NCBI GenBank assembly: GCA_046861395.1
Contig: JBHHUC010000015.1
Coordinates: 1 to 39,296 of the forward strand
Direction: 5' to 3'
Source of the DNA: Fidelibacterota bacterium
GTDB lineage: Bacteria; Fidelibacterota; Marinisomatia; Marinisomatales; JABMOV01
Length of the DNA stretch: 39,296 bases
Notes under the pieces: model-generated
The model's input: only the letters and a program-made list of their open reading frames with translations
The model's database searches: none
What the model was told of the DNA's origin: nothing
Translations under genes and position numbers: made by a program
In this document: positions 18,159-38,788 of the stretch, piece by piece
How the letters are laid out: the number at the start of each line of letters is the position of its first letter
Numbering within the stretch: the first letter of the stretch is position 1

Positions 18159-19117
18159 TTCTCTTCGTCAAAATAGCCCAGATGATCGAATTTTTCGATT
18201 CGGTGGGTCAGAAATTCGTTTTCCTGATAGCGACTCAATTCTTCCAATTCCTCCTGGATCGCTGTTTTCAGCATTTCGCAGGTTGCTTTGGGATCACGAT
18301 GGGCTCCACCGTGTGGCTCAGGGACGATGCGGTCGCAAATATGGACCTTCTGCAAATCACGGGGCGTCAATTGTAGGGCTTCTGCCGCATCGGCCGCTTT
18401 TGATGCATCACGCCAGAGGATGGAAGCACAGCCCTCTGGACTAATGACAGAATACCAAGTATTTTCCAGCATCAGCAAACGATCAGACAATCCGATTCCC
18501 AAAGCACCTCCACTAGCCCCTTCCCCGATGACAACGGATATAATCGGGACTTTGAGACGGGCCATTTCCATCAGGTTGCGGGCAATCGCTTCTCCCTGTC
18601 CACGCTCTTCGGCACCAATGCCGGGAAATGCACCCTGAGTATCAATCAGTGTAATGACCGGTTTTTGAAATTTTTCTGCCAGTTTCATGATACGAAGTGC
18701 TTTCCGATAACCTTCTGGACGCATCATGCCGAAATTCCGGTAAATATTCTCCTTGGTGTTACGTCCCTTTTGCTGACCGATATAACAGACGCTGCGGCCA
18801 TTGAATGAACCAAAACCAGTCACGACCGACGTATCATCACCGAAGTGCCGATCACCATGCAATTCAATAAAATCGGGCGACCAGGATTGAATGAAATCAA
18901 GACTGTACGGCCGCTCCGGATGCCGCGCCAGCTGCACTCGTTGCCAGCGATTCAATTTCGAAAAGATGCGATGAATTAATTCTTCCCGTTTTTTCTCCAA
19001 TTGCTTTATATTCTGAACAGTCTCAGGTGAAGGATGATTAGCTGCTTGCAGTGTAAGAATTTTTTCGTCGAATTCTTTTATTGGTTTTTCAAAGCTGAGA
19101 TATGTTTTAAGCATCAT
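18155..19117 (-). CDS. accA: Acetyl-CoA carboxylase carboxyltransferase alpha subunit
   Basis: [57 protein letters not shown]. Confidence 0.97.
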
Positions 19118-21177
19118 TATCCGTTAAATAATGTTTTTACCAGAATTTCCATGTCCAGAGTAAAACTCTGGTGCTGAAGATAATAATGATCCAGTAACCG
19201 GCGATCATCAGCGGTTAAATTACTATGCCTTAAACGGTGAATACCAGTAAGACCCGGACGACAAAGAATTTCCGGCGGGTCACCACCGTCCACCATATCC
19301 AACGGGGAACCGACGAAACTCATTCTTCCCTTTAGAATATTCAGGAGCAAAGGCAAATGGCGAATGAAATGGGATGAAGCGCCCGGGAAAATATAACCTC
19401 TGAATTTCTGTTGACTTTCGTTCCAGTATCTGACCGGTTGACGGCTGCCCCAAAGACCGACAAGAATGGGGGCGGTAGCCAGGATCATCACAGCAGAAAA
19501 AGTAATGTCAAATAATCGCTTTAATACCCAGTTTATCCGCCGAAAAAGAGTGTATTCAATATTTACAAATGAATAATCACCAATATCTTCAATGGAAGCC
19601 TTTCCTAATAAAATATCCTGATGACGGGGTACCATCCGATACGTAATGCGTAAATCTTTGGTGGCATCCATGACCCGAAGGATTTCGCGGGACGAAAAAC
19701 GGGCGGTCGGGAAAATGATTTCCTGGATTTTATGAATCTGAATGATAGAACGAATATCATTGATTCGGCCTAGAAACGGAACCGGCAATTTCTCCACTTC
19801 AACTTCTGGATTATAGTCACTAAATCCAATAATATTTAAACCTGTATCAAAACGCTTAAGTAAATGCTTTGCTATTCTTATCGATTCCTTATCGGTTCCC
19901 AGAATAATGGTGCGGCGCGTGAATAAAATACTGTGCTTATCTTTCATCGGACGAAAGCGTCCCTGAGACATAAAATAATGAAACAGGATTCGCCAGCCGG
20001 GGATCAATACGGCAATAATGATGGTCGCCACGATGATTACTAGTCGGGAAAAAGCAAATTGCTTGAAAAAATATGTAAAAACAACGGCAATGAAAAATCC
20101 TGCCAGGGTGGAAAGAATCGCCCGTGAATAGGACAGAATAAATCGTGAATACAGCTGAAACATGGTGCCGATCAAGAGCCAGAAAAGTACGTATACCCCT
20201 GGGATGAATCCGTAGGTCCGGTAAACCGGTTCGTAATCAGGGAAACGTAATGGTAAGGCCAGAGCAAAGGCCAACAAAACAGCAATCGCATCGAATGAAA
20301 CAGAGACAATCTGCGACATGGAATTGGCCAGCAGCGATATGAAATGGCGCAGGCGAACACCCCACCGGATACCAATGCGTGTCATGAATATATTCCCGGA
20401 CGAAAAGTGTTTTTCCGAAAATAAAATCATGGCGTCATAGAAGGCCTGAAGACTGTCGAAAGGCGCTGACTTTACCGATTCACCATGAAAATGGATGATT
20501 TGGGTCGTCGGTAAATAATGGATATCATAGCCCAACTGATGGATTCGGTAGCAAAGATCCAAGTCCTCACCAAACATGAAGAAACGTTCATCGAATTTTC
20601 CAGCCTCGTCAAATACGGGTCGGCGGACGAACATACACGAACCACTGATGGCATCCACAGAATGGATTTCGTCCGGATCCAGGTATGACAGATTGTATTT
20701 ACCGGCCCAGCGTGATCGGGGAAACAGGTACGATAATCCCAGTAATTTCGGCAAAGCTACTGACACGGACGGAAAAGAGCGTTTGCAGGCTAGTTGCAGG
20801 GTTCCGTCGGCATTCAATATCTTCGGACCGACCATTCCAACCTGGCTATGAGCTTCCAGATACGATACAAATTTTCTTATTGTTGTTGATTCAATAATCG
20901 TATCGGGATTCAGAATCAGTAGGTAATCGCCTGAACTTACGGCGTAGGCCTGATTGACCGCCTTCCCAAACCCCACATTGAATTCATTGGGAATAACAGA
21001 TATATCAGAATAATTTTCCCTCAAGGCAACCACCGATCCGTCATAGGAATTATTATCAACAACGATGATTTCGATTCGGCCTTCATATTCCGAAGACTGA
21101 ACTTGGTCGATGGCATGCAGCAGGTAATTCTTTACGTTATAATTGACAATTAGAACTGAAACAACGGGAGCTGTCAT
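19117..21177 (-). CDS. GT2 glycosyltransferase fused to TM helices, a CoA-binding-like domain and a degenerate bacterial sugar-transferase domain
   Basis: [28 protein letters not shown], followed by about 4 TM helices, KRLFDI and [12 protein letters not shown]...PGLTG. Confidence 0.88.
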
Positions 21178-23865: not shown

Positions 23866-24537
23866 TTACTTCTTTTTTATCCTTATTTTATTTCTGAATA
23901 AAATAAAATAGCCACTGTTCCAGCCTATAAAGAAACCGACCATCACCAGTAATACTAGTATAGCCGCCAGGAAGCTGAGTGAAACGGGTAAAAAGTAGGA
24001 TTTCACTTGCAGTCCTTCATTATTCGTGGTTATTCTGACAGCACCGGCAAAATCACCTGGGAAATACCGGGATTCCGGTTGCAATTGGCCTGTTTCCGGA
24101 TCGATTCTTCCGTGGCAACGTAAACAATTTTCTTCAAAACGCAGGGGCATCAACAGGGATGAACCGGCATCGTTTCCCCCCCCTCCTTTGTGAAATACAA
24201 ATGGTTTGGTGGGATCATCTTCCATGATCTGTAATTGCTGCGATTCCCAGGAATCGGGTATATGGTCGGGATTCACAGGATTTCGTGAAATTATTTTAAA
24301 CGAATATCCTGGAATGAGATTTTCTACGTCCCCGTATTTTTGTTGACGAATGTCCTCCGGAAAGGTCATTTCATTTAGTTTATATTGATAAAACCGGTTG
24401 GCGATATCCAACATGAATTCCACATCCGTTACATTTTTCAGGACGATTAAATGACCGGTTGTGAATAGTGCCAATACAATGATGAAAATGGTAATGGACA
24501 AAAGAATCCGCCTGAATTTATCTTCCTGGCGCTGCAT
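23866..24537 (-). CDS. DUF3365 (Tll0287-like) single-heme c membrane protein
   Basis: Two TM helices flanking SRNPVNPDHIPDSWE, CLRCHG and GDFAGAVRIT; no cytoplasmic output domain. Confidence 0.8.
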   Translation of the reverse strand: MQRQEDKFRRILLSITIFIIVLALFTTGHLIVLKNVTDVEFMLDIANRFYQYKLNEMTFPEDIRQQKYGDVENLIPGYSFKIISRNPVNPDHIPDSWESQQLQIMEDDPTKPFVFHKGGGGNDAGSSLLMPLRFEENCLRCHGRIDPETGQLQPESRYFPGDFAGAVRITTNNEGLQVKSYFLPVSLSFLAAILVLLVMVGFFIGWNSGYFILFRNKIRIKKK

Positions 24538-25808
24538 CAGTCCCTGCTCTCCGTCGTATAAGATTTTGCACAGCGAAAACCGACCATGTCGTTGCGCAAA
24601 TCCGGTTTCCCAGATGTTCGGTAGGATACAGTTAGACGATCCGGGATATCAAACCAGCCGCCACCGCGAATGGAACGCTCCACACTGGTGTCAGGTCCGG
24701 TGGGATTGCGCTTCGGAATAATTTTATAGTAATCCTTATCATACCAATCGGCTACCCATTCCAATACATTGCCGGCCATATCATAGACGCCGTATTGACT
24801 GACGCTATGGATTGTCGCCGTGCCGTCCGCTAGAGTATTGATTCCATTGAAATACCCGACTGGGGTCGGTCCCATCTCAAAGGGATCATTACTATTTCTG
24901 AAATTGGCTGCTCGGTAGGTAATGGTGTCACCACCGGGATATTTCCTGTCATCCTTATCTCCGCGGGCGGCTTTCTCCCATTCCGCTTCGGTAGGCAAAC
25001 GCTTCTCCCGAAAGGCAGCATAATCATGGGCTCCGTGCCAGGTTACGTATACCACCGGGAAATCTTCTTTTCCCCTTCGGGGCTGATAACGGCCATCTAT
25101 TCGTTGAATGTCCATTCGAGGGTCAAAATATTGATCATGATCGGCATTAAGAAATTCCGCAAATTGGGCATTGGTCACTTCATATTTATCAATAAAATAA
25201 TCATCGAGGTAAATGGTTGTTACAGGTTGCGCATTAAAATGTTTCCCTCCCAGGATAAATGGTCCGCGAGGCACCATAGCCATCCCTTCGGGGACAACGA
25301 TAATTTCGATTTCCTTCACCAATTGTCCGCCGGAAACCATAAATTGCTGCATTTCGTTCTGTTCGGACAGTAATCGCTTTATTCCCCGGCTGTAATGAGG
25401 TTCGCGCGACGGTTGGTAGGATTTAATATTCATATTTATTAATCTTGCCTGAACGGTCGTCGCACCCGGGGAAATACCGGTCACAGTGCCGGTCGAATCA
25501 ATGGTGGCCGTAATCGTATCTGTATTGGCCCAGATTACTTTATAGCCACCAACTGGTTTTCCGTCAATGTTGGCAGCAAAGGCCGACAGCTTTCTCTTTT
25601 CATCGATTGATAGAATCATGCGATCGGTACTGGTAACAAAACGGTTGAATTCCATTTTCGCCGTACGGGCCGAAATGATGAGATTAATCGTCCTTGATAT
25701 GTACAAATTCACCCATAAAAGCAGAATGGCGACAATGGTCAACAGGGCCAGATAGCGTATGAATTCATACCGCTCCATTCGATAGCCGTATTTTTTAACT
25801 GGGCTCAT
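24537..25808 (-). CDS. Membrane-anchored FGE/SUMF1-domain protein with Ig-like (Big_2) domain, probably non-catalytic
   Basis: N-terminal TM; ATIDSTGTVTGISPGATTV; KYEVTNAQF, RLPTEAEWEKAARG, YDMAGNVLEW, RGGGW, GFRCA. Confidence 0.88.
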   Translation of the reverse strand: MSPVKKYGYRMERYEFIRYLALLTIVAILLLWVNLYISRTINLIISARTAKMEFNRFVTSTDRMILSIDEKRKLSAFAANIDGKPVGGYKVIWANTDTITATIDSTGTVTGISPGATTVQARLINMNIKSYQPSREPHYSRGIKRLLSEQNEMQQFMVSGGQLVKEIEIIVVPEGMAMVPRGPFILGGKHFNAQPVTTIYLDDYFIDKYEVTNAQFAEFLNADHDQYFDPRMDIQRIDGRYQPRRGKEDFPVVYVTWHGAHDYAAFREKRLPTEAEWEKAARGDKDDRKYPGGDTITYRAANFRNSNDPFEMGPTPVGYFNGINTLADGTATIHSVSQYGVYDMAGNVLEWVADWYDKDYYKIIPKRNPTGPDTSVERSIRGGGWFDIPDRLTVSYRTSGKPDLRNDMVGFRCAKSYTTESRD

Positions 25809-28800: not shown

Positions 28801-28891
28801 TGGTAATGATGACCTGGGCTTTCAGCAGACCAAGCCACAGAATACTGAACAACGCTCCCTGTTGATATATCCGCTTAATCCGCATTGGCAT
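25805..28891 (-). CDS. Large predicted outer-membrane beta-barrel protein with N-terminal Ig-like domains
   Basis: Signal peptide; several hundred C-terminal residues of alternating amphipathic strands rich in Y/G/F; terminal strand SGFYLTVNLKL; overlaps the DUF11/OmpA gene. Confidence 0.75.
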   Translation of the reverse strand: MPMRIKRIYQQGALFSILWLGLLKAQVIITNPPDKAIKSNNHIAVTVTGRPGTETTLFVNDEKRKTGKIRIDGFLDFLNIVVPPGPNSIVVEVVGAGNRIYRAERTIHVLGPPKNIIPYEPDVSLPANGISRKRLQFEVQDQWGYTIPNVKFATVSLTNGVIVNEDENGDVAGLQAAISDGVFFVSLQSPLVAGKGILEIEINGEYLQFPISYTTPIKPFILVGSVRGTAIGKMSTTGSDVSPYVESIDATDAAFNQDGLALDGRTAFYATGTVGDGYRLTASLDTDRDYYDQIYQDVDPDEPLPIYGDASVLTYDAQSKSRFFARVDHNTSFVLFGDYNTSFNSTEFAASNRTMNGLFSQFNVGNHYVSGFASYADQVLGRDQIRGDGTSGFYYLSHANIIWRSEKIKIEVRDKYHPEVILKSQDMHRYQDYDINYVDGTIMFKQPVPSVDEEGNPRYILVFYEYKTNTNSALVTGLRYEGQINNRLRLGSTFLREEQGKNDYMLTGFDLALPVNDWLAVKGEVAQSRDPNLSGGMNQGLAYKTEINLTPAARFNVTGYFRNVDSLFTNRSQLNGNNESGNMKYGIKGEYGTNLFGRITSEYYFQGNKMGTVNESRVNVFNVYMQKEMGDRYNFKLGYEENQVEKGYSSSQTGQTATLLRGSAIMKISDKLSGLIDHDQNLGGSQTSKPTNTALGLGYDITKKLRTYIKYRHLYDRTDASQTVLGFDSKVSDNTAVTGKYEMGGAIGDDRNRASIGLRNQWSVREDLIINLAYENVSTIDSLQVPTPEHSAGSVSLEYFPDMPIKITAKQELKTDKVSKKSVTTLGSDFKVYNSLSGILKINNQYTRYKQSGQGFTRHQEYSAGLALRPEKSDRINGFARLSLVGDRNTHVTPTINLERMITSVMLYWQPVKKWEFGGRYAHRRILDEEGNLFSDKTATDFYSLRGEYELNLSWGLAADFRMIHLKPVNEYKFGTAVEINYVIYKNTQLGMGYMFTRYNDPDFAFLSSDISGFYLTVNLKLSEKLFE

Positions 28892-31800
28892 ATGATTTAT
28901 TTGTAGTTAAACGAATAACCCTGACCGTTTCATCGGTGATGGGTTGGTTATCTCTAATAAGACGGGTCGATACTTTGAAAATGTCGGTCTGAAAACCAGG
29001 ATCGACATAGGCCTTGACATCAATGGTAATGGACTCATCGGCGGATGAAATTGGTATCCGCCACATGCGCTCACCTATGAAGGACTGATCGAAATCACTA
29101 ATAAGTTTTACGTAATGGGGCATTTGCGCAAATATTTCGATTTGATCGGCAGTATCGATATTGATCATGTCCAAATGCAAACGCAGGGAAACGGGGCCTT
29201 CATCCGGTAGGTTCAGAACGTCCTCATTTTCCGATTGAGCCATGCGTCGGGGTTGCGTTTGGATTTCTTTACCCACCGAATCCCTGATTACTTCAACACC
29301 CATGACGAGATCACTGCCGATTTCGGAATTCACCAAGACCTCCACCCGTCGATTCTTCGCCTTACCGGCTTCCGTATTATTGCCAGCCAGAGGATACCGG
29401 GGACCGAAACCGCGGGTGGCGATTCGGCTGGGTTGAATTAAATAATTCTCCACTAGATAGCTTTTGACGCTTTCGGCCCGTGATTTTGATAGCGCCAGAT
29501 TATAGTTTAAATCACCATCCGAATCGGTGAACCCATCGATGACAATACTAATATTGGGCTGCCAGGTGAGGAATTTCCCAAGTTTTTCAATCGGATCGGC
29601 GGAAGAACCGCGTAGTGTTGCCGAGTTCACATCAAAATTGGTTCCTTCTAAATTCATTTGGAAGGATAATTTCTCTATCAGGACGGAAACATTGGTGATG
29701 AGATCACGAGATATGCCGCTTTTACCGTCTTCATACTCATATTCAATATGTGCTTTGGAAATATTGAAATCGTTAATGGCCGCATAATTCCCTGGTATGA
29801 TATTGAAAACCAGCTTGGCAGTATCATTTTCGGCCAATGAACCCAGAAGCCAGGAAATTGATGAGGATGACACGGAATCGGGTGCCAGAGGTTCACCGTT
29901 CAAGCGGGCCGAGTTTGAGGCATAGATGAATCCAGATGGCAAAGCATCGATAAAGCGCACTTTATCGTACGGTATTCCGCCACGTGTCCGAATATTGAAG
30001 GTTAGCTCTATGGCATTCTGGTGAGGCTGTTCCTCATTGGATGTGCTGAATATGAGTTCCACCCTACGGTTGGCTTTGCGACCTTCGGCTGTTTCGTTGC
30101 TGGCAATTGGCCTTGTTTCCCCATAACCCCTAGAGGAAATTCGGTTGGCACTGATGCCCATCTCATCCACCAGGAATTTTTTAATATTATTGGCCCGATC
30201 CATCGACAAATCCAGATTATTTTCAAATGGAGATGATTCGGGCGGATCAATGTTATCCGTATGTCCCTCGATGGTCAGGTAAATATGAGGTTGCCATTGT
30301 AGGAATTGGGCCACCTTCCGCATTTCTGTATAAATTTCCGGTCGTAACACTGATTCACCCGATAGGAAGCCAAGGCGAAGCAGCATGGACCAGGGTTGAT
30401 AACGCATAATCCTGACACCGTCGGATTTTGCTCTTTCCTGCAGTGAAATCAGCGAAACATTACTGAGGGCGATATCAAGACCGTCACTCCGTACTTGAGT
30501 TTCAGCCTGATGAATGATTCGAACACTAAAATTAGCTTTGGCAATGCCACCCGGACTTACATAAACCAGACGGGATGAATTATCACCAAGATAATCCATC
30601 TCATTCAGGACGACTTCATGATTGGCTGGTATAGAATATTCGTTGATCCGTATTACGTGATTCCCGCCGGGAACATCTGGAATGGAATATTTTCCATACT
30701 CATCTGTCAAAATCCGGATGCCCGTTTCGGAAATGAGTTCCACGCCCTTGATACCGGGTTCATATTCATCATGGATATCATTTCCATTTAAATCATAGTA
30801 CACTTTGCCGAATATCAGTCCGCGATCACTGAACAATCCGGGGTGTACCACAACAGTGGCTTTGGCCTCGTTAGAAGTGACCGGATATCCCCCCATGGTC
30901 CGTCCATTGGCTGAAACAAGGTTATCATTCTCTCCGGCCTGAGCCTGCAACCCAATGATGGTACGGTATTTCAATAGCTTACTTTCACCCGGATTTAGTG
31001 TATCATCAATAGACCAAGTAAGGATGATACGATTATCCGTTCCACTAGAATAGGCCGGTTTCCCAACACGATTGTTATCCCAATATACATTTTTAGATTT
31101 TTGCTTGAAACCCGTTGGCAGGAAATCAACAATCTTGATCTGATCCACATATTCATCTCGGCTCGTATTTTCAACCTGAACCGTGTAGGTCAAGACATCC
31201 CCAAGTTCAGCGACCCGGCGATTGACGTCTTTTTTCACCCGCAGAAAGGGATAAATAATGCGTGTTATAGCATTAGTACGGGCATCATGTGTTGATTGCG
31301 TTGTATCAATTTTATTTGTCACAAAGGATATATTTTCCACCAATGAGGAGCCGTTAAGTTCTTCGCTGGTTCCCACAATGGCCTGGAACGTGAGAGAATC
31401 CCGTTCATGAAGCGTCAGGCCGATACGATGGAATGCCAATATATTCCCCAGACGGTCATAGCCATCATATGTTAAGGTCGGATTCACCTGGATCGACGGC
31501 TCAATAACTGTCAATCCGGTAGGAATATTATCCACTACATATACCGAATCAGTTAAGGCAACATCCTGACTGCCGTAGTAGAGGGTGTAAAATAAGGTAT
31601 CACCCGGTGCTGCTTCATCCATATCCACCGTCTTGTACATGTAGAACGGTGATTGCCGCAATACGATGTTGGCGCCCACGACGTAGGTGCCGGGGTTGGA
31701 TAGATTGACATTAATTGCGCCATCACTGTAGGATCGGGTACCGTTATAATTTGCTTCCAGGAAATAATTGCCCGAATCAAGATTTGTGAAATAATACATG

Positions 31801-34800
31801 CCTGTTGAATCCGTGATGGTTGTGTCCGACCAGGTGTCAGCAAACATACGTCCGTTACCACCATTGGACGAATCGGGGACAAACCACAGAATGATTGTGA
31901 TCCCCGCTTCATTGATTACGCGTCCGGTAAACTGATCGTACAACCAGCCCGAAACGGAATTCAGATTGGGAATGATATCGCCGTTACTGGGAATATCAAA
32001 TTGAACTTCCTGTTCCGTTGACACTTCATTGCCGAAATCATCCAGATACATGTACTGTATGTAGTATTCATCGACGGTACTCACGGGAATCAGGTAGTAT
32101 CCTTCACTGTCGGTGGTGTCGGTACGGACGATTTCATCATCCGAGGTTCGAACCAAATCGACGACAGCCCCTGAAATGGCAGTTCCTTCGTAATCCACTA
32201 CCCAGCCTTCAAAAGCGCCAATCACAAAGGTAACTATGGTGGTATCCTCCGCGAAGGTCTGAGGCGAAGGAATGGCGCGACCGGTTATGGTCGCATCCAC
32301 CGGTTGATCAACGACAATATCCGAAATGATCAGGCTTTGCGCCAAACCATTGACGGTATAGGTTGTATCCAGGATATCCGGGATAGTCCCGCGATCACTG
32401 GCAAAGGTTACCGGCATACCGTCGGGCACGGGATTGCCCAGGTAGGAATATACATGAGCATTGAGAATGGCCGAAGCTTCACCGTTCCCCAGTACTACCC
32501 GCGGATTCGGGGTGAGTACGATGGACAATGGTAAAATATTGGTCGTAACCGATTCGGAATGAACCGGATCCCCTTCGTTGTAATATGCCCAGGCCGTATT
32601 GTAAAACTGATCCCCTTCACCCAGTGTGGGTGTCACGGTAGTCTGAATTGTAATACTGCCTTCTTCACCCGGTTCAAGATAACCGATGTCCCACTCCAAA
32701 ACAGCAATCGTACTGTTATAAGTGTAGGTTCCGGTGGCTGAAATGAAATTCACTTCCGGCGGCAATGTGTCCCGGATGAAAATATCCGTCGCAATATCCG
32801 TTCCCCGGTTGGCATACTGAATCGTATACATAACCTCATCTCCGGGAAATACCTCAACCGTAGCATGTTTGATTAATTCAATCGCCGGTTTTGAAATAAC
32901 TTGGAATGTAACATCAGAAGTGTCGGCCAACCCATCCGCTGAACGGATAATGGCTTGGTTGTGAATCGTTGAGCCGTCGGGAATCGGATTGTCAATTCGA
33001 ACGGCGACTTCTGCAACCTGAATTCCTGCTTCCGTATCATCGACCGGGAGTAAATCACCAAGGGTCCAGGTTACGACTCTGTTCGCTTCATCATAAGTCG
33101 ATTCTCCTGAAGCGTATAAATAGGTCACGCGTTCAGGCAATGTATCAACCAATGTGACGTCCAATGCCGTCGTATCTCCGCGATTGGAATATGTCAGGTA
33201 ATATGTTAATGAATCCCCACTGAAGACATCGGTAGTATCCACTGTTTTATCAAGAACCAGAACAGGTGCCTGAACGGTGGTCCAGGTTTCCGATGCCCGT
33301 ACAATATTTTCCCGACTGGTCATGTAAACCGTGTTATGGATCGTTGATCCGCCAGTTAAACTGGAATTCGCCTGCGTTATTACGGACAGTGTACCGTCAT
33401 CCCCGGCTGGGACCGTACCCAGGTTCCAGGTCAGGACATGACTGGCCGCCTGATAACTGAACGGTCCGGTAGCATAAATGAAACCGGCTTGTGCGGGTAA
33501 TGTGTCGGTTATGACTGCTTCCGTTACAGGCGTTGTACCAACGTTGCTATAGGAAATTGTATAGGTAAGTGTATCACCTGCCAGGATCGATTCAGCCGCA
33601 GATTTTTCCACGCTAAATTCCGGCAATGGTACCATGTAGGTTTCAAAGACATCATCGGCATGAGCTCCTTCGATACTGTTGATTTCAGCGGCATCTGTCA
33701 GAACCTGATTGGTATGGGTCGTATCGTCAATTGTCACCAGAATCGTGCGACTGCCCGATTCATTCACTGTCAGGACACCAATCTCCCATCGGACGCCATG
33801 ATATTCACTCATGTATTGTCCATTATCCGACGCAGAGACAAAGGTAACGCCGGAGGGCAAGGTATCGGTTAACAATACTTCGTGCGCCGTCGTATCACCA
33901 CTGTTGGAATAGAACAGAGTATATTCTAGCGGGTTGCCGGCACTGGACGTAGTATCGCCGGACAGATCCAATTGCAAGACCGGCATTTTCACCTGCGTCA
34001 CAACCTGGTCCCAGGCGCGAAGCTGTTCGTAACAGTCCAGGTAAGCGCGATTGATGATTTGTGTTCCGTAACCCAGCGGAGTGTGAACTCGCGTTAGAAC
34101 CGTTAAACTGTCTTCCTGCCCGACGGTGAGCGATCCCAATTCCCAGGCCACAGAATGACTTTCTGCTTCATAGAAATATAACCCTGAGGCAGAAATAAAT
34201 TCGACCTCGACAGGTAATGTATCCCTAAGGACTACCTGTTTGGCTGATGTAAGACCCGTGTTACTATAGTGAAAACCATATACCAGCGTATCGCCGGGAA
34301 CGATTCGATCCGGTGCCCATTTATCCAGATTTAACTCCGGAGCGGCACCAATCGCAGTAACAGCACTTGAAACATCATTGGCGCCCTGGTCCGTTGCTAT
34401 GAAGACCTGGTTTTCCAGGGTGACATAGGCATCAACCGTATCAGCGATATTGGTAACCAGCGTTATTTCACCTGAAGCACCAAGGTTCAGGGAATCCAGC
34501 GTCCATGACACCGCATGCTCAGCCGACGAGTATACTCCGTCTGGCAGGGATGAAAGAAACGCTGCACCCGCCGGTAAAACATCATTGATACTGATGTTGG
34601 TAAGTGCCTGATTCCCCGTATTGGTATAAAACAGGGAATACACCAGCGTATCACCGGGTAATCCTTCCGGAGCATCCACCGTTTTTACGATAGAAACATC
34701 CGGGGATGGCCCCACGGTTACAAGGTAGGGATTTGATGGCACCGGAACACCATTGTCATATTGCGTCCAGGCCGTATTTACCAACTCCACTCCCGCAGGA

Positions 34801-35228
34801 ATGATTCCGTCAGTGATGGCCTGCAACGTCAATACGATTGTTTCATTACCCAGTATCTGGGGAAAGTTCCAGGTGACTGTTTGTCCGGTGACACTGGCCA
34901 CAGGATCTGTTGCAAGGTACAGTAATCCCGCGGGGAGTGTGTCTGTTACAATTACATCTACCGCACTTGCAACCCCGGTATTGGTGATTTCAAGACTATA
35001 GGTCAACGTGTCATTAGAGAACATGGTTGTCAGATTACCGGTCTTCAGTATGGTCAGACTTACGGCATCCGCAACCACGGTTTCAACGGTGTCACTCGCT
35101 ATGGTATAGGGGAAATCGCTCAGGTCCGTATAGGTACATTGCGCCACATTCGTGATACGCGTAGCACCGGGAACCTGAGCGATCCCCATACTCATTAGAA
35201 AGATAAATAAAACCGTTATGCGCTGCAT
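28875..35228 (-). CDS. Giant DUF11 (isopeptide 'conserved repeat') protein with Big_1/SdrD-B-like domains and two OmpA-like peptidoglycan-binding domains, 2117 aa
   Basis: Signal peptide; about 9 repeats of K..GD.LTY....N.G....V.I.D.LP...W.L..L.....N.A; GKVYYDLNGN; OmpA motifs IEGHTDN..LSMDRA..NRRVE and IDGFTDS..LSKSRA..NRRVE. Confidence 0.9.
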   Translation of the reverse strand: MQRITVLFIFLMSMGIAQVPGATRITNVAQCTYTDLSDFPYTIASDTVETVVADAVSLTILKTGNLTTMFSNDTLTYSLEITNTGVASAVDVIVTDTLPAGLLYLATDPVASVTGQTVTWNFPQILGNETIVLTLQAITDGIIPAGVELVNTAWTQYDNGVPVPSNPYLVTVGPSPDVSIVKTVDAPEGLPGDTLVYSLFYTNTGNQALTNISINDVLPAGAAFLSSLPDGVYSSAEHAVSWTLDSLNLGASGEITLVTNIADTVDAYVTLENQVFIATDQGANDVSSAVTAIGAAPELNLDKWAPDRIVPGDTLVYGFHYSNTGLTSAKQVVLRDTLPVEVEFISASGLYFYEAESHSVAWELGSLTVGQEDSLTVLTRVHTPLGYGTQIINRAYLDCYEQLRAWDQVVTQVKMPVLQLDLSGDTTSSAGNPLEYTLFYSNSGDTTAHEVLLTDTLPSGVTFVSASDNGQYMSEYHGVRWEIGVLTVNESGSRTILVTIDDTTHTNQVLTDAAEINSIEGAHADDVFETYMVPLPEFSVEKSAAESILAGDTLTYTISYSNVGTTPVTEAVITDTLPAQAGFIYATGPFSYQAASHVLTWNLGTVPAGDDGTLSVITQANSSLTGGSTIHNTVYMTSRENIVRASETWTTVQAPVLVLDKTVDTTDVFSGDSLTYYLTYSNRGDTTALDVTLVDTLPERVTYLYASGESTYDEANRVVTWTLGDLLPVDDTEAGIQVAEVAVRIDNPIPDGSTIHNQAIIRSADGLADTSDVTFQVISKPAIELIKHATVEVFPGDEVMYTIQYANRGTDIATDIFIRDTLPPEVNFISATGTYTYNSTIAVLEWDIGYLEPGEEGSITIQTTVTPTLGEGDQFYNTAWAYYNEGDPVHSESVTTNILPLSIVLTPNPRVVLGNGEASAILNAHVYSYLGNPVPDGMPVTFASDRGTIPDILDTTYTVNGLAQSLIISDIVVDQPVDATITGRAIPSPQTFAEDTTIVTFVIGAFEGWVVDYEGTAISGAVVDLVRTSDDEIVRTDTTDSEGYYLIPVSTVDEYYIQYMYLDDFGNEVSTEQEVQFDIPSNGDIIPNLNSVSGWLYDQFTGRVINEAGITIILWFVPDSSNGGNGRMFADTWSDTTITDSTGMYYFTNLDSGNYFLEANYNGTRSYSDGAINVNLSNPGTYVVGANIVLRQSPFYMYKTVDMDEAAPGDTLFYTLYYGSQDVALTDSVYVVDNIPTGLTVIEPSIQVNPTLTYDGYDRLGNILAFHRIGLTLHERDSLTFQAIVGTSEELNGSSLVENISFVTNKIDTTQSTHDARTNAITRIIYPFLRVKKDVNRRVAELGDVLTYTVQVENTSRDEYVDQIKIVDFLPTGFKQKSKNVYWDNNRVGKPAYSSGTDNRIILTWSIDDTLNPGESKLLKYRTIIGLQAQAGENDNLVSANGRTMGGYPVTSNEAKATVVVHPGLFSDRGLIFGKVYYDLNGNDIHDEYEPGIKGVELISETGIRILTDEYGKYSIPDVPGGNHVIRINEYSIPANHEVVLNEMDYLGDNSSRLVYVSPGGIAKANFSVRIIHQAETQVRSDGLDIALSNVSLISLQERAKSDGVRIMRYQPWSMLLRLGFLSGESVLRPEIYTEMRKVAQFLQWQPHIYLTIEGHTDNIDPPESSPFENNLDLSMDRANNIKKFLVDEMGISANRISSRGYGETRPIASNETAEGRKANRRVELIFSTSNEEQPHQNAIELTFNIRTRGGIPYDKVRFIDALPSGFIYASNSARLNGEPLAPDSVSSSSISWLLGSLAENDTAKLVFNIIPGNYAAINDFNISKAHIEYEYEDGKSGISRDLITNVSVLIEKLSFQMNLEGTNFDVNSATLRGSSADPIEKLGKFLTWQPNISIVIDGFTDSDGDLNYNLALSKSRAESVKSYLVENYLIQPSRIATRGFGPRYPLAGNNTEAGKAKNRRVEVLVNSEIGSDLVMGVEVIRDSVGKEIQTQPRRMAQSENEDVLNLPDEGPVSLRLHLDMINIDTADQIEIFAQMPHYVKLISDFDQSFIGERMWRIPISSADESITIDVKAYVDPGFQTDIFKVSTRLIRDNQPITDETVRVIRLTTNKSYANAD
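32540..35070 (-). repeat. Seven tandem ~120-aa DUF11 protein repeats (approximate bounds)
   Basis: Seven consecutive domains with the shared motif; diverged at DNA level. Confidence 0.8.
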
Positions 35229-35280
35229 AGTGTCGGTTTTACACCGTTATTTCCAGATGATAGATAATCGGTAATCCGAA

Positions 35281-36957
35281 CTAATTAATCGTTACCTGGA
35301 AAGTAACCGTATGTGAGCCGCCTGATGATACCTGCCCCAGATTGAAGGTGGCAACCGTACCGTCACAGCTGGCTTCAGGATCAACTGACGTCAGATCATT
35401 TTTTAAGACACTGTCGATCGTCAAAGACCCAGAGACATACGATGTATTGGCAGGTATGTTATCCGTAATGACAACGGAAGTAGCCGTTCCGCTACCGGCA
35501 TTGTTTACCGTTACGGAGTAGGTCAACACGGTCCCAGGAGGCTGATTACCGGTTGGTAAAACCGACTTTGACAGGGTCAGGAACGGGGCTGTCGTAGTGA
35601 TTGTAAAGGTGGCATAATCCGTAACTAACGAATTCCCGGATGATGTTCCGGTCAGGGTAAAGGCATGGATATCACCGTCCGGTGTTCCGGCCGGAATCGT
35701 AGCCACGGCAAAAACCGTCACGGAGGAACTGGCCGCAATGGACCCTGCATCGTCGAGGCCATCGGCGTTGCTATCCGTCAGAAGCGGTTCGCTTCCGTCG
35801 CGGGTTCCGTTTCCTTCATCCAGGTAAAGGGCCCAGGTCCAGGCATCGCTGAAGGTCAAATTAATGACATCAGAAGTGTTGCTCTGGTTGGCCACGGTAA
35901 CGATGAATACCAATTCGTCGCCGGGGTTTCCGGACGCAGAGGAATCGGGATAAATCGCAATGGCATAGTTGGTGCCAACGGTAACCGTAATGGACGGATA
36001 CAGGGTCGGATAGAGATTGTTGTTTCCGTCTTCATAGGTGACGACGGGGTCATCAAGGATCGGTGTGGAATTAGGAACACCGCTATTGACGATGACCGTG
36101 TAGGTAACGCAGACGGTACCACCGGAGGCAATATTACCTAAGGCAACGGTAACCTGTCCCGTGTTGGTTATATTATAGTCACCATCGTCTATATCACCAG
36201 CATCTGTCTGGGATACACCATCCAAGGTAATACTCTGCGCAGAATAGGTTGTATTCGTGGGGATTGGTCCGACGAATTGCATGTTATATGCCATCGCTGA
36301 ACCCGTATTGTCAAAACAATAGGTGTATGTTACGAATTCACCGGGTAAGGGTGCCGGGTTATCCACCGTGGGAGTTACCACAATTACCGGAGCAGATACA
36401 GTGGCGGTAATATCGCCAATATCGGAAACAGCATTATCAAACTGTGATGTTCCAGTAATATCGACGAAGACCTGGTCGCCGTCTACACCCGTTCCGTTAT
36501 CAGTAATGACGATAATGAGATCGAAGGTGGCATCGGCAGCTAGGCTGGTCGTTGCCGTCACAATGGCATCACTGCCATCGATAGTACCATTCGAGTTCAG
36601 GTCGGAATAGATGCTGTAGGAATAGCTGCTGGATCCGGTGGATGAGAGCAATCCCGTTAGGTTAAATACATCGTTGTCATTGCCGGTATTGGTTATGGTT
36701 AAGGGCACCGTTACGCTTCCCATAGATGGCAGCGTGACTACGTTGCCATCGGGGCCGACACTGACACCGGCGACCTGCGATACGGTTGTGGTTACGGTGT
36801 TGGAGGCCACCTGCAACATGGCGTTGCCGTTGGCATCGTTGTAGTTACCGTAAGCGGTATTCGAGATTATGGTCCCTGCCGGCGTTCCTGCTCCAAAGGC
36901 AATACCGACAGTTACCAACATTACAATGATGGTAATCATTGATTGTGTACGTTTCAT
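35281..36957 (-). CDS. Secreted DUF11 protein (candidate major pilin/fibre subunit), 558 aa
   Basis: ATG 36957 with AAGGAAAG upstream; signal peptide ending AFG/A; N-terminal GTPAGTIISNTA; Ig-like domains with DxNxNG-type loops; C-terminal DUF11 ending TVTFQVTIN. Confidence 0.87.
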   Translation of the reverse strand: MKRTQSMITIIVMLVTVGIAFGAGTPAGTIISNTAYGNYNDANGNAMLQVASNTVTTTVSQVAGVSVGPDGNVVTLPSMGSVTVPLTITNTGNDNDVFNLTGLLSSTGSSSYSYSIYSDLNSNGTIDGSDAIVTATTSLAADATFDLIIVITDNGTGVDGDQVFVDITGTSQFDNAVSDIGDITATVSAPVIVVTPTVDNPAPLPGEFVTYTYCFDNTGSAMAYNMQFVGPIPTNTTYSAQSITLDGVSQTDAGDIDDGDYNITNTGQVTVALGNIASGGTVCVTYTVIVNSGVPNSTPILDDPVVTYEDGNNNLYPTLYPSITVTVGTNYAIAIYPDSSASGNPGDELVFIVTVANQSNTSDVINLTFSDAWTWALYLDEGNGTRDGSEPLLTDSNADGLDDAGSIAASSSVTVFAVATIPAGTPDGDIHAFTLTGTSSGNSLVTDYATFTITTTAPFLTLSKSVLPTGNQPPGTVLTYSVTVNNAGSGTATSVVITDNIPANTSYVSGSLTIDSVLKNDLTSVDPEASCDGTVATFNLGQVSSGGSHTVTFQVTIN

Positions 36958-36988
36958 TTTACTTTCCTTTCTAATGAAATTCATGTTA

Positions 36989-37471
36989 TTATTTGACAAC
37001 CACGTCAAATAACAGGCTACGTTCTTCCCCAGGTGATAACGATTCGGTTATTTCCCATTTGATATGTGTGATCATATCCGCCGTAGCCGTTTTATTGATA
37101 TTCTTTCCTTTTTCATTCCGTATGGTGTATTGCACCGGCCAGGAATGAAACGTTTTTCCCATGTCAATCGAAAACAGAACCCGGGCGTTATCGCCGCCGG
37201 CTGTTCCCGTGACATACCTGACGCCGGCAGGAATCGGATCAACCACTTCAGGATTGACCATGGTACCCGTACCGGCATTTACAGCGCGGATCGTATAGCG
37301 AATAGTATCACCAGGGAAATAGGTGATATCCGTTTCCCCTGCCGCTTCCGCGTCTGTGAGGTTTAGCTTTTCTTCGTTAATGGTCAGTTCCAACGATGGA
37401 ACCCCCTGAGCAATTACCCAGGAACCCAACAGGAAGAAAAACATGATTATCAAATTCTTATTGTTTGTCAT
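36989..37471 (-). CDS. Small secreted single-DUF11 protein
   Basis: GAGGAGG RBS; signal peptide; PGDTIRYTIRAVNAG..VVDPIPAGVRYV...ITHIKW..LSPGE..LLFDVVVK. Confidence 0.85.
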   Translation of the reverse strand: MTNNKNLIIMFFFLLGSWVIAQGVPSLELTINEEKLNLTDAEAAGETDITYFPGDTIRYTIRAVNAGTGTMVNPEVVDPIPAGVRYVTGTAGGDNARVLFSIDMGKTFHSWPVQYTIRNEKGKNINKTATADMITHIKWEITESLSPGEERSLLFDVVVK

Positions 37472-37522
37472 AAGACCTCCTCATGTTCTTTATATTGATT
37501 TGATTGTATTCAAATTGATGTT

Positions 37523-38788
37523 TCATTGTATAATGACCCGAAAGATGACAAATCCGGACTCACCAGGCAGTAGCGGGGTAAGCCGCTGGAAGGATATATC
37601 GGTCACATTTGTTTGGTTACTGCCATAAGAAATTCCGCCGTCGGGACTAAAGAGAATATTTATGGGACTTCCCTGGGCGGATCCTGGGACAAATTGCGTA
37701 TGAGCCGGAATGCTTTCCAGGATAAAGACAAACGTTGCATTATCATCCCCGGCGTTGGAATAATACACCGTGTAGGTCAGCGTATCCCCGGGAACTGCAT
37801 TATAAGTGTCCACTGTCTTGGATAAGACTAACTGCGGGCCGATAACTTGCACACCGGCGGTGGGGCCGGTCGTAATACTGGACCCCGATGCATATACTGC
37901 CGTCGCAGAATTTTCATAATAGCCCCGGCTCAATCCCACATGCACGTCAAAAGTCAATGTCACGGATTGACCAGGTGAAACCGTCCAGGGACCAGTCCAG
38001 GTCAGGGTATTATTCTGAACACCGGGTTCGACTGCGGTGATTCCGCCGGTTGATCCCGGGATGTAATTAAAAAGTCCCGGCAGAATATCGATGATTTCCG
38101 TAATGACTGAATCAGCCGAAGAGCCGTTTGGTCCACTATCACTGTGATCATCATCATGATCGTTATCCCCGTGATCATCGCCATGATCATCGTCGTCATC
38201 ACTGTTTCCGTAATTGTTGGTGATGGTAATGGTATAGGTTACCACCGATCCGGTACCGGTCGAATCGACCGAAACATTTTTTGTGATGATTGGGAGTCCG
38301 GTATCGTCATCTTCATAGTCGTCATTATGATCATCGTCGCCATGATCATCGCTGGCGTAGAGCATCCAAGGAGCGAAAGCATTGTTTGCCGCTACAACAT
38401 GCTCCATATCGAAAACACTTACCGGAGCATACTCCCTGGTCGATGGATAATTACCAGACAGGTAACCATTTGGAATACCACCATGATGAGGGGAGTTCAT
38501 GGTCGTATATCCCGCAGTAGCTTTGGTATCAGGTAGGAGTACCGGGGCCCAAATGGTTAACCTATTCGGTAATAATGGTTGCTTAATAGACGGGAAAAGC
38601 CCGGAATCGGATGTTTCTGCCGATAATGTTGAGGGGAAGAACATATCTACGGCAAAAACGGATGTTCCGGATTCCGGGCTAAGAGTTTGATTTACTGGAG
38701 TTAAAGGGGAATTGTAATTATATGCGAAACCAGCACTTAACAGTACTGTAAGCAGAATTGCAAATATGGTGTATCTTTTTGTTATCAT
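37523..38788 (-). CDS. Secreted two-DUF11-domain protein with His/Asp-rich tracts (candidate tip subunit)
   Basis: Signal peptide (AGFA); DDHGDDDH tracts; PIITKNV...IIDILP...YENSA and PQLVLSKTVD...FVIFRVIIQ domains. Confidence 0.83.
   Translation of the reverse strand: MITKRYTIFAILLTVLLSAGFAYNYNSPLTPVNQTLSPESGTSVFAVDMFFPSTLSAETSDSGLFPSIKQPLLPNRLTIWAPVLLPDTKATAGYTTMNSPHHGGIPNGYLSGNYPSTREYAPVSVFDMEHVVAANNAFAPWMLYASDDHGDDDHNDDYEDDDTGLPIITKNVSVDSTGTGSVVTYTITITNNYGNSDDDDDHGDDHGDNDHDDDHSDSGPNGSSADSVITEIIDILPGLFNYIPGSTGGITAVEPGVQNNTLTWTGPWTVSPGQSVTLTFDVHVGLSRGYYENSATAVYASGSSITTGPTAGVQVIGPQLVLSKTVDTYNAVPGDTLTYTVYYSNAGDDNATFVFILESIPAHTQFVPGSAQGSPINILFSPDGGISYGSNQTNVTDISFQRLTPLLPGESGFVIFRVIIQ

Follow-up and report, generated by a model that had tools for sequence, protein, structure and literature searches.

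The DUF11 domain, recently renamed CLIPPER, has been crystallized (PDB 9IFR) from a fibrillar adhesin of 2129 amino acids (aa) with an OmpA-like anchor (Acinetobacter silvestris B9T28_05395), and the structure contains an autocatalytic intramolecular bond between Lys715 and Asn806, with Asp748 as the catalyst (PMC12617251). In BsaA of Clostridium perfringens, a member of the TasA family, the donor Asn, located at the N-terminus, is paired with a Lys and a Glu of the acceptor, as confirmed by mutants (bioRxiv 10.1101/2024.11.04.621531). In this work we have analyzed an operon located in a stretch of 39,296 nucleotides (nt) from a Fidelibacterota bacterium (contig JBHHUC010000015.1; hereafter the window, to which all coordinates refer). 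Five minus-strand genes in one orientation have been read out from the open reading frames (ORFs), encoding proteins of 421, 160, 558, 2117 and 1028 aa, all of which start with a signal peptide, by eye of the ordinary AxA type. We consider it probable that the operon specifies a donor-strand surface fibre in which split DUF11/CLIPPER domains form the joints, a Lys-Asn bond probably locks them, the 421-, 558- and 2117-aa proteins take the roles of tip, shaft and base, and the base is associated with a barrel, the 1028-aa protein.

The computational results support a widespread and apparently undescribed variant of donor-strand pili with its own barrel. No description of a split DUF11/CLIPPER domain or of such an operon was found by full-text search of a literature collection that covers few subscription journals.

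Anatomy and conservation of the split DUF11 domain

The shaft subunit (558 aa, minus strand, 36957-35281) consists of a signal peptide, an N-terminal piece of two strands termed here the tag (36891-36781, residues 23-59, with Asn33 at 36859-36861), middle Ig-like domains and a C-terminal truncated DUF11 domain termed the catcher (35595-35284, residues 455-558, with Lys464 at 35566-35568 and Asp499 at 35461-35463), which ends ..FQVTIN-stop. The longest ORF would start from TTG at 37008; the chosen start, ATG at 36957, comes after the AAGGAAAG stretch. The base protein (2117 aa, minus strand, 35228-28875) likewise begins, after its signal peptide, with a tag (35177-35073, residues 18-52, Asn27 at 35148-35150), followed by nine DUF11 matches, Big_1 and CarboxypepD_reg domains and two OmpA peptidoglycan-binding domains (30066-30368 and 29328-29636), and it has no terminal catcher. 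The tip protein (421 aa, minus strand, 38788-37523) is composed of a signal peptide, a variable N-terminal part, a complete DUF11 domain and a C-terminal catcher (residues 317-421, Lys324 at 37817-37819, Glu358 at 37715-37717) ending ..FRVIIQ-stop, and it carries no tag. The 160-aa protein (minus strand, 37471-36989) is a signal peptide joined to one truncated DUF11 domain that ends ..FDVVVK-stop; its Asp78 (37238-37240) lies in a DPIP motif and its Lys35 (37367-37369) stands in a shifted register, LELTINEEK instead of LxLxK.

A sequence-only reading of the window had proposed that the 421-, 160- and 558-aa proteins stop right after the FxV strand and that the two strands they lack, the Asn among them, open the 558- and 2117-aa proteins directly behind the signal peptide. 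Both the endings and the N-terminal pieces have been verified, and the codon positions given there for Asn33 and Lys464 of the shaft and Asn27 of the base proved exact on re-reading.

The four proteins score 50.2 (421 aa), 30.9 (160 aa), 51.4 (558 aa) and 353.2 bits (2117 aa) with Pfam DUF11 (PF01345; cut-off 24.6), and the NCBIfam model TIGR01451 gives a match as well. The Pfam match to the shaft C-terminal domain covers profile positions 4-84 of 114 only, and NCBIfam TIGR04226 (RrgB_K2N_iso_D2) aligns to it over positions 5-105 of 123, below the cut-off. The match in the tip spans Pfam profile positions 2-56 of 114. Asp/His-rich low-complexity inserts (DDDDDHGDDHGDNDHDDDH) are located in the tip at 38144-38200 (residues 197-215), with a second tract near residues 140-155; they sit inside its otherwise complete DUF11 domain and might bind metal ions or mineral surfaces.

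A word-indexed search with the 558-aa protein gave 207 homologues at E<=1e-3 among 7999 candidates scored, and 120 of them, 530-623 aa long and 34-47% identical to the window protein, were aligned (alignment A1). A common C-terminal end column is found in 117 of the 120 sequences. The Lys/Asp/Asn triad, which the sequence-only reading had placed on the two halves of the split domain, is conserved at the tag Asn33 in 116/120, at the catcher Lys464 in 119/120 and at Asp499 in 119/120. No part of the shaft is better conserved than the tag, which begins directly behind the AxA signal-peptidase site.

As an independent check of homology, the two halves were placed on a hidden Markov model (HMM) of 123 positions, built from 58 complete DUF11 domains of giant proteins encoded in related loci. 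The C-terminal domains of all 120 shafts fall on positions 1-90, none reaching further, and 119 of the 120 N-terminal pieces align to approximately 92-123, the last two strands including the Asn, so that the tag is exactly what the catcher lacks. The scores of these pieces, 43 residues long, are modest (median E 0.007; 24/120 below 1e-3). The 160-aa protein maps to positions 16-90. The tag of the window's base matches this HMM weakly (E 0.2) and matches an HMM of the shaft tags with E 1.4e-6. At the level of sequence the tag is thus confirmed as the missing part of the catcher domain, and the split pattern lies far beyond chance.

When a complete domain of the window's base was compared with solved structures, 9IFR was the sole sequence match (E 2e-4). 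By sequence the operon proteins belong to the CLIPPER family, yet they break its feature of one domain closed by an intramolecular bond: the terminal domains depart from the rule of one contiguous domain, their remainder being found at the N-terminus of the same or another protein.

Division of roles across related loci and the barrel family

One genome per species was scanned, and 62 related loci (L004-L065) were annotated with tag and catcher HMMs derived from A1 and by phmmer with the window's proteins. They originate from about ten phyla (Neomarinimicrobiota, Lentisphaerae, Acidobacteriota, Desulfobacteraceae, Syntrophales, Latescibacterota, Gemmatimonadota, Ignavibacteriales, Verrucomicrobia and others) and include those of the cultured Oligosphaera ethanolica (Lentisphaerae) and Acidobacteriota strain Mor1. 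The same order of genes recurs: first a variable protein with a catcher at its end, then a counterpart of the 160-aa protein, one or rarely two shafts with tag and catcher, a giant DUF11 protein and a relative of the barrel of about 1030 aa. The split architecture, whose conservation had been suggested as a check, is conserved both in A1 and across these loci.

An intact shaft ORF is present in 54 of the 62 loci, the other eight being cut by the contig end, frameshifted or under the tag threshold. Of 47 assessable loci, 43 have a giant protein that starts within about 400 nt downstream of the shaft; of the four loci lacking a giant call, L042, L043 and L062 do hold a giant with OmpA and barrel that was skipped by the DUF11 filter. 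Directly upstream of the shaft lies a small DUF11 ORF in 47/50 assessable loci, 46 of them clear relatives of the 160-aa protein, and upstream of the small ORF a further DUF11 protein is encoded in 33/47, of which 29 end in a catcher. The tip proteins are highly variable, ranging from 250 to 2800 aa. Nowhere in the 62-locus set does a tag occur on an upstream tip or a catcher at the end of a giant base.

The tag HMM aligns to each of the 45 full giants, among them the one in the window, in the first 150 residues (40 at E<0.01). The bases are tag-only and the tips untagged, as the sequence-only reading had proposed for the window. The Asn at the tag position was found by gapless mapping in 43 of the 45; in L050 an Asn is recognized by eye, and in L043 the residue is Ser. 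When a looser set was taken, of 40 ORFs with a terminal catcher and no tag (mostly tips, with about four shaft fragments), the Lys is kept in 36/40 and an acidic residue in 39/40 (Glu in 20, Asp in 19). Among the relatives of the 160-aa protein, Lys is kept in 43/54 and Asp in 47/54. The occurrence of tag-only bases and catcher-only tips beside the shaft is a division of labour that is sensible only between chains.

A search for base homologues with the first 420 residues was swamped by generic DUF11 repeat proteins; of 11 matches picked by OmpA or by the same mid-section domains, 10 begin with a tag-like motif and one (P0234) does not. OmpA domains are present in 28/41 complete giants. The Latescibacterota base with Ser in place of the tag Asn (L043:11824-19179) may be a natural non-covalent variant.

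Two shaft paralogues are encoded in L007 and L008, in tandem, and in L031, where the unit of 160-like protein and shaft is duplicated; L007 has a second set of OmpA and barrel upstream. Short shafts of 293-329 aa with one middle domain occur in L027, L033, L036, L039, L040, L048 and L049 (Acidobacteriota and relatives), and in these loci the base is always fused to the barrel.

The 1028-aa outer-membrane barrel (minus strand, 28891-25805), which had not been included in the sequence-only reading, is the best marker of the system. It consists of a signal peptide, two Ig-like domains (residues 28-215) and about 40 predicted strands (221-1023), and the start of its gene overlaps the end of the base gene by 17 nt. 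A separate barrel gene follows the base in 25/25 assessable loci, and 15/41 complete bases are themselves fused to a barrel. The 1028-aa protein matches no family of Pfam or NCBIfam. Its AlphaFold2 (AF2) model, built on an alignment of 41 rows (A3), has a predicted local distance difference test score (pLDDT) of 80.6 and a predicted template modelling score (pTM) of 0.67, with the same ~40 strands between 221 and 1023. Foldseek comparison gave template modelling (TM) scores of at most 0.24 (Deinococcus SlpA, LptD, MtrB, SprA), and VIA gave a tie at Z of about 15 among maltoporin, TonB-dependent receptors, the PapC pore, FimD, SlpA and SprA; the match to the PapC pore (Z 15.5, root-mean-square deviation 5.5 Å over 307 aligned residues) ties with those to unrelated barrels. 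Only unnamed clusters were recovered from the ESM Atlas.

Against 1.84 billion cluster representatives the A3 profile matched 7903 at E<=1e-3, 4826 at 1e-10 and 2995 at 1e-30. Among the best 150 matches, 117 are at least 1300 aa long with the barrel at the C-terminus; 72 of these long forms carry a tag (E<0.01, first 160 residues), and many of the others by eye show a divergent form of it or are truncated at the N-terminus. The tag was detected in none of the 33 shorter forms. Among the evidence from context, the repeated finding of a stalk with a tag fused to the barrel speaks most strongly for the tag-only protein being the cell-proximal end.

Clustering of all ORFs revealed no further gene family (chaperone, protease or sortase) common to the 62 loci. 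The families found in at least 10 loci beyond the DUF11/barrel cluster consist of minus-strand ORFs; those checked lie inside the operon genes, so that they were rejected as antisense shadows. The host is diderm, with seven Omp85-family matches in its genome, which is 94% complete and assembled in 136 contigs and in which tag, catcher or barrel are found at this locus only. The claim that neither a sortase nor a PapD-like chaperone is encoded nearby can be extended to this genome: PapD_N is absent from the Pfam matches of the 26 window ORFs and has no match genome-wide, and no usher (PF00577) and no sortase family were matched in the window or in the genome. The catcher-bearing proteins end straight after the FxV strand without a sorting signal such as LPXTG, and none of the five operon proteins has a Pfam match to TasA/camelysin.

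Models of the joint and alternative explanations

The AF2 monomer model of the 558-aa shaft has pLDDT 87.2 and pTM 0.57, with tag strands at residues 29-40 and 50-59 and a block pLDDT of 83-91. The shaft sequence had no match among solved structures, and Foldseek returned for its monomer model strings of generic Ig-like domains only (TM at most 0.23). Since donor-strand subunits are known to complement themselves when modelled as monomers, the shaft monomer does not decide between completion within and between chains.

Three copies were modelled of the 293-aa shaft homologue from L049 (residues 28-293), an Acidobacteria short form, 44% identical to the window protein, that comprises the tag, one middle domain and the catcher; the alignment (A2) contained 127 rows. 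With three copies offered, both self-closure and chaining were possible. The interaction prediction score from aligned errors (ipSAE) was 0.64, 0.69 and 0.67 in the three runs (median 0.67); the best of 3 controls scored 0.00. The mark set for this score was reached by 20/30 proteins whose solved structure is a pair of one chain and by 1/23 solved as single chains, and it is a rough guide here, as the model had its own alignment and three copies. The runs agreed in at least 95% of contacts, with partner pLDDT of at least 88. The tag of copy 3 (residues 28-66) lies against the catcher of copy 2 (189-237 and 274-293), with Asp231 and Asn38 forming one of the closest pairs and Lys196 located within the interface. 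The catcher of copy 3 itself contacts no other chain, which fits an open head-to-tail chain. The model thus supports the inter-chain mode. Complex modelling had been proposed as a check on the sequence-only reading; carried out on the homologue, it places the tag in the neighbour's catcher with the Asp beside the Asn, as expected, and puts the Lys within the interface. Those elements of the sequence-only reading that computation can address all turned out as it had predicted.

Completion of the domain between chains might leave the joint non-covalent, the Lys, Asp and Asn being inherited from the ancestral domain with no bond formed across chains. The Ser at the tag Asn of the L043 base agrees with this, as do the interchangeable Glu and Asp of the tips and the incomplete retention of Lys and Asp in the 160-aa family, and BsaA oligomers are stable in sodium dodecyl sulphate even without the isopeptide bond, according to that preprint (bioRxiv 10.1101/2024.11.04.621531). 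Yet in the shafts the triad is held across phyla more tightly than most of the protein, the parent CLIPPER domain makes its bond autocatalytically in the published account (PMC12617251), and the L049 model brings the catcher Asp to the Asn with the Lys in the interface, so that we regard a purely non-covalent joint as unlikely. If, on the other hand, the shaft tag completed the catcher of its own chain, the product would be a closed monomeric adhesin with at most a single base-tip pairing and no polymer. Such closure is suggested by the presence of tag and catcher on one chain and by the confidence of the tag strands in the AF2 monomer, which is as expected if they are docked somewhere; however, the inter-chain mode was adopted in all three runs of the three-copy model, bases with a tag alone and tips with a catcher alone are conserved next to the shaft, and two shaft paralogues occur in some loci (L007, L008, L031). 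In addition, the tag strands of tandem DUF11 arrays run straight into the next domain, the geometry of a straight rod, and taken together these observations make closure within the chain distinctly improbable.

The N-terminal motif could also serve as a signal by which the barrel, or some other export route, sorts or recognizes the proteins, with the truncated domains sufficient alone. It does stand exactly at the mature N-terminus of proteins that need export and is their most conserved part, but tips and the 160-aa protein need export as well and have no such motif, and its homology to the last two DUF11 strands, Asn included, at the very HMM positions that catchers lack leaves a signal function with very little probability.

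Several points weigh against the polymerising fibre itself. The high confidence of the tag strands in the shaft monomer could mean self-closure in that model, and the complex model is that of a homologue and not of the 558-aa shaft of the window itself. Such modelling tends to be passed by the halves of a split domain through their likeness to solved folds, so that a pass denotes fit and not binding. The likeness of the barrel to solved barrels is generic, and an usher-like role is therefore suggested by gene context alone. The Ser of the L043 base indicates that the covalent lock is not universal. That catcher-only proteins cap the tip, as the sequence-only reading held, is supported for the 421-aa protein, which ends in a catcher and whose counterparts are untagged across loci; that proposal is weakest where it makes the 160-aa protein a cap, a role that is doubtful because its Lys is off register and incompletely kept in the family. 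It may be a minimal cap, or a reversible periplasmic binder or chaperone of tags that holds off polymerisation. A covalent polymer would, moreover, have to be kept from forming in the periplasm. No match to the shaft was obtained by a single-protein query in 40 genomes of the same family and order, which is read as a patchy distribution or as limited sensitivity of the search and is not taken as absence. Finally, the fibre is read here from genes and models alone.

The proposed fibre and its relation to known systems

In the donor-strand fibre proposed here all operon proteins would be exported by the Sec pathway. Each catcher, at the C-terminus of the more distal protein, would lack its final two strands until the tag at the mature N-terminus of the more proximal protein supplies them; the tag Asn would thereby come to lie beside the catcher Lys and Asp/Glu, and an autocatalytic Lys-Asn isopeptide bond would probably lock each joint. 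From the distal end the order would be the catcher-only 421-aa tip, n copies of the 558-aa shaft and the tag-only 2117-aa base. Every protein would then point its N-terminus out and its C-terminus in, the polarity of chaperone-usher pili as drawn here, so that growth is expected to proceed tip-first from the base. The tag of the base would end growth and anchor the fibre, its OmpA domains holding the peptidoglycan, and the base would work with the 1028-aa barrel or, elsewhere, be fused to it. The location on the surface, the passage through the barrel, the order of assembly and the control of polymerisation are all predictions from the gene products and their arrangement.

A bolder version can be put forward tentatively, and we think it possible, if somewhat doubtful: that the operon represents an undescribed, phylum-spanning class of diderm pili without sortase or chaperone, in which polymerisation is tip-first, a hairpin of two strands is donated and locked autocatalytically, the fibre is threaded through an usher-like barrel of ~40 strands, the terminating tag sits on the partner of the barrel or on its own fused N-terminus, so that the fibre is tied covalently to pore and peptidoglycan, and the 160-aa protein serves as a decoy catcher that chaperones the tags.

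Two further genes look co-transcribed with the operon in the window, and neither has a counterpart in any of the 62 related loci. One (minus strand, 24537-25808, its start lying 4 nt within the end of the barrel gene) encodes a 423-aa protein with Big_2 and FGE-sulfatase domains that is weakly GldK/PorK-like (115.8 bits against a cut-off of 350), and the next (minus strand, 23866-24537) a 223-aa Tll0287-like protein. Downstream of the operon a small polysaccharide cluster contains a 686-aa fusion of a family-2 glycosyltransferase (GT2), a CoA-binding domain and the C-terminal part of a bacterial sugar transferase (minus strand, 19117-21177), adjoining another GT2 and an RmlD-like reductase. 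At 275-2598, on the plus strand, two genes with overlapping ends encode, in this order, a 354-aa cytochrome b/b6-like protein and a 420-aa multihaem cytochrome c (Paired_CXXCH, cytochrome c7/c3-like); both are unrelated to the fibre.

If the proposal is true, two-membrane bacteria possess a new route of pilus assembly that is self-catalysed, covalent and independent of sortase and chaperone, and a function can be assigned to a very large unannotated family of barrels (the 2995 cluster representatives at E<=1e-30). Evolution would have divided the isopeptide domain of fibrillar adhesins into a tag and a catcher of natural origin, and a set of orthogonal, naturally tuned protein-ligation pairs would be at hand in the variants, with Asp or Glu, of shaft, tip and base. 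It would also raise the questions of how premature polymerisation in the periplasm is avoided, how a chain of folded domains crosses the outer membrane, and which ligands are bound by the tips in marine, sediment and vent bacteria.

The operon has features in common with several described fibre systems but falls within none of them. The CLIPPER adhesin shares with the operon the domain family and the Lys-Asp/Glu-Asn triad, and it likewise pairs a CLIPPER stalk with an OmpA-like anchor. Its bond, however, closes one domain within one monomer, whereas here the split terminal domain would join proteins, and the window's base carries a tag where the published adhesin has its adhesive head. In SpyTag/SpyCatcher a peptide and a truncated isopeptide domain reconstitute and bond (PMC6539128), in a manner comparable to the joint proposed here; that pair is engineered from a CnaB-type domain (CnaB2) and forms a Lys-Asp bond, in contrast to the natural CnaA-like split of the operon, which appears arranged for polymerisation.

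Chaperone-usher pili (Fim, Pap) are built from incomplete Ig-like subunits, each made whole by an extension at the N-terminus of the next one (PMC11821415), and the model and sequences indicate the same principle here, with two strands donated. An acceptor-only tip, a rod of subunits with both halves, and an implied tip-first growth ending on a terminator at an outer-membrane barrel are further common features. The operon differs from them in having no PapD-like chaperone or usher family and in the probable covalent lock; its anchor is predicted to bind peptidoglycan and is often fused to the barrel, which is larger (~40 predicted strands) and only generically like PapC or FimD. The 'tafi' paper (PMC11821415), considered as a source for DUF11, was rejected in that role, its text matching through DUF1102 only and dealing with another subject than this domain.

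The archaeal threads formed by Saci_0406 combine donor-strand complementation with a proposed sortase-free intermolecular isopeptide bond (PMC9715654). That bond, in contrast to the one considered here, connects Asp24, through its N-terminal amino group, with Asn57 of subunit n+2; the fold is unrelated, there is no Lys-Asn triad, and the archaeal host has no outer membrane. BsaA resembles the proposed fibre in that an N-terminal strand enters the next subunit and a donor Asn and an acceptor Lys with an acidic residue form an intermolecular isopeptide bond without sortase. The conservation of the donor Asn and of the acceptor Lys and acidic residue in the shaft is analogous to this logic in a fold that is not homologous. 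BsaA requires SipW, comes from a monoderm host and lacks an outer-membrane component, while the system of the window would be distinguished by two donated strands, by separate tip, shaft and base roles and by a dedicated barrel.

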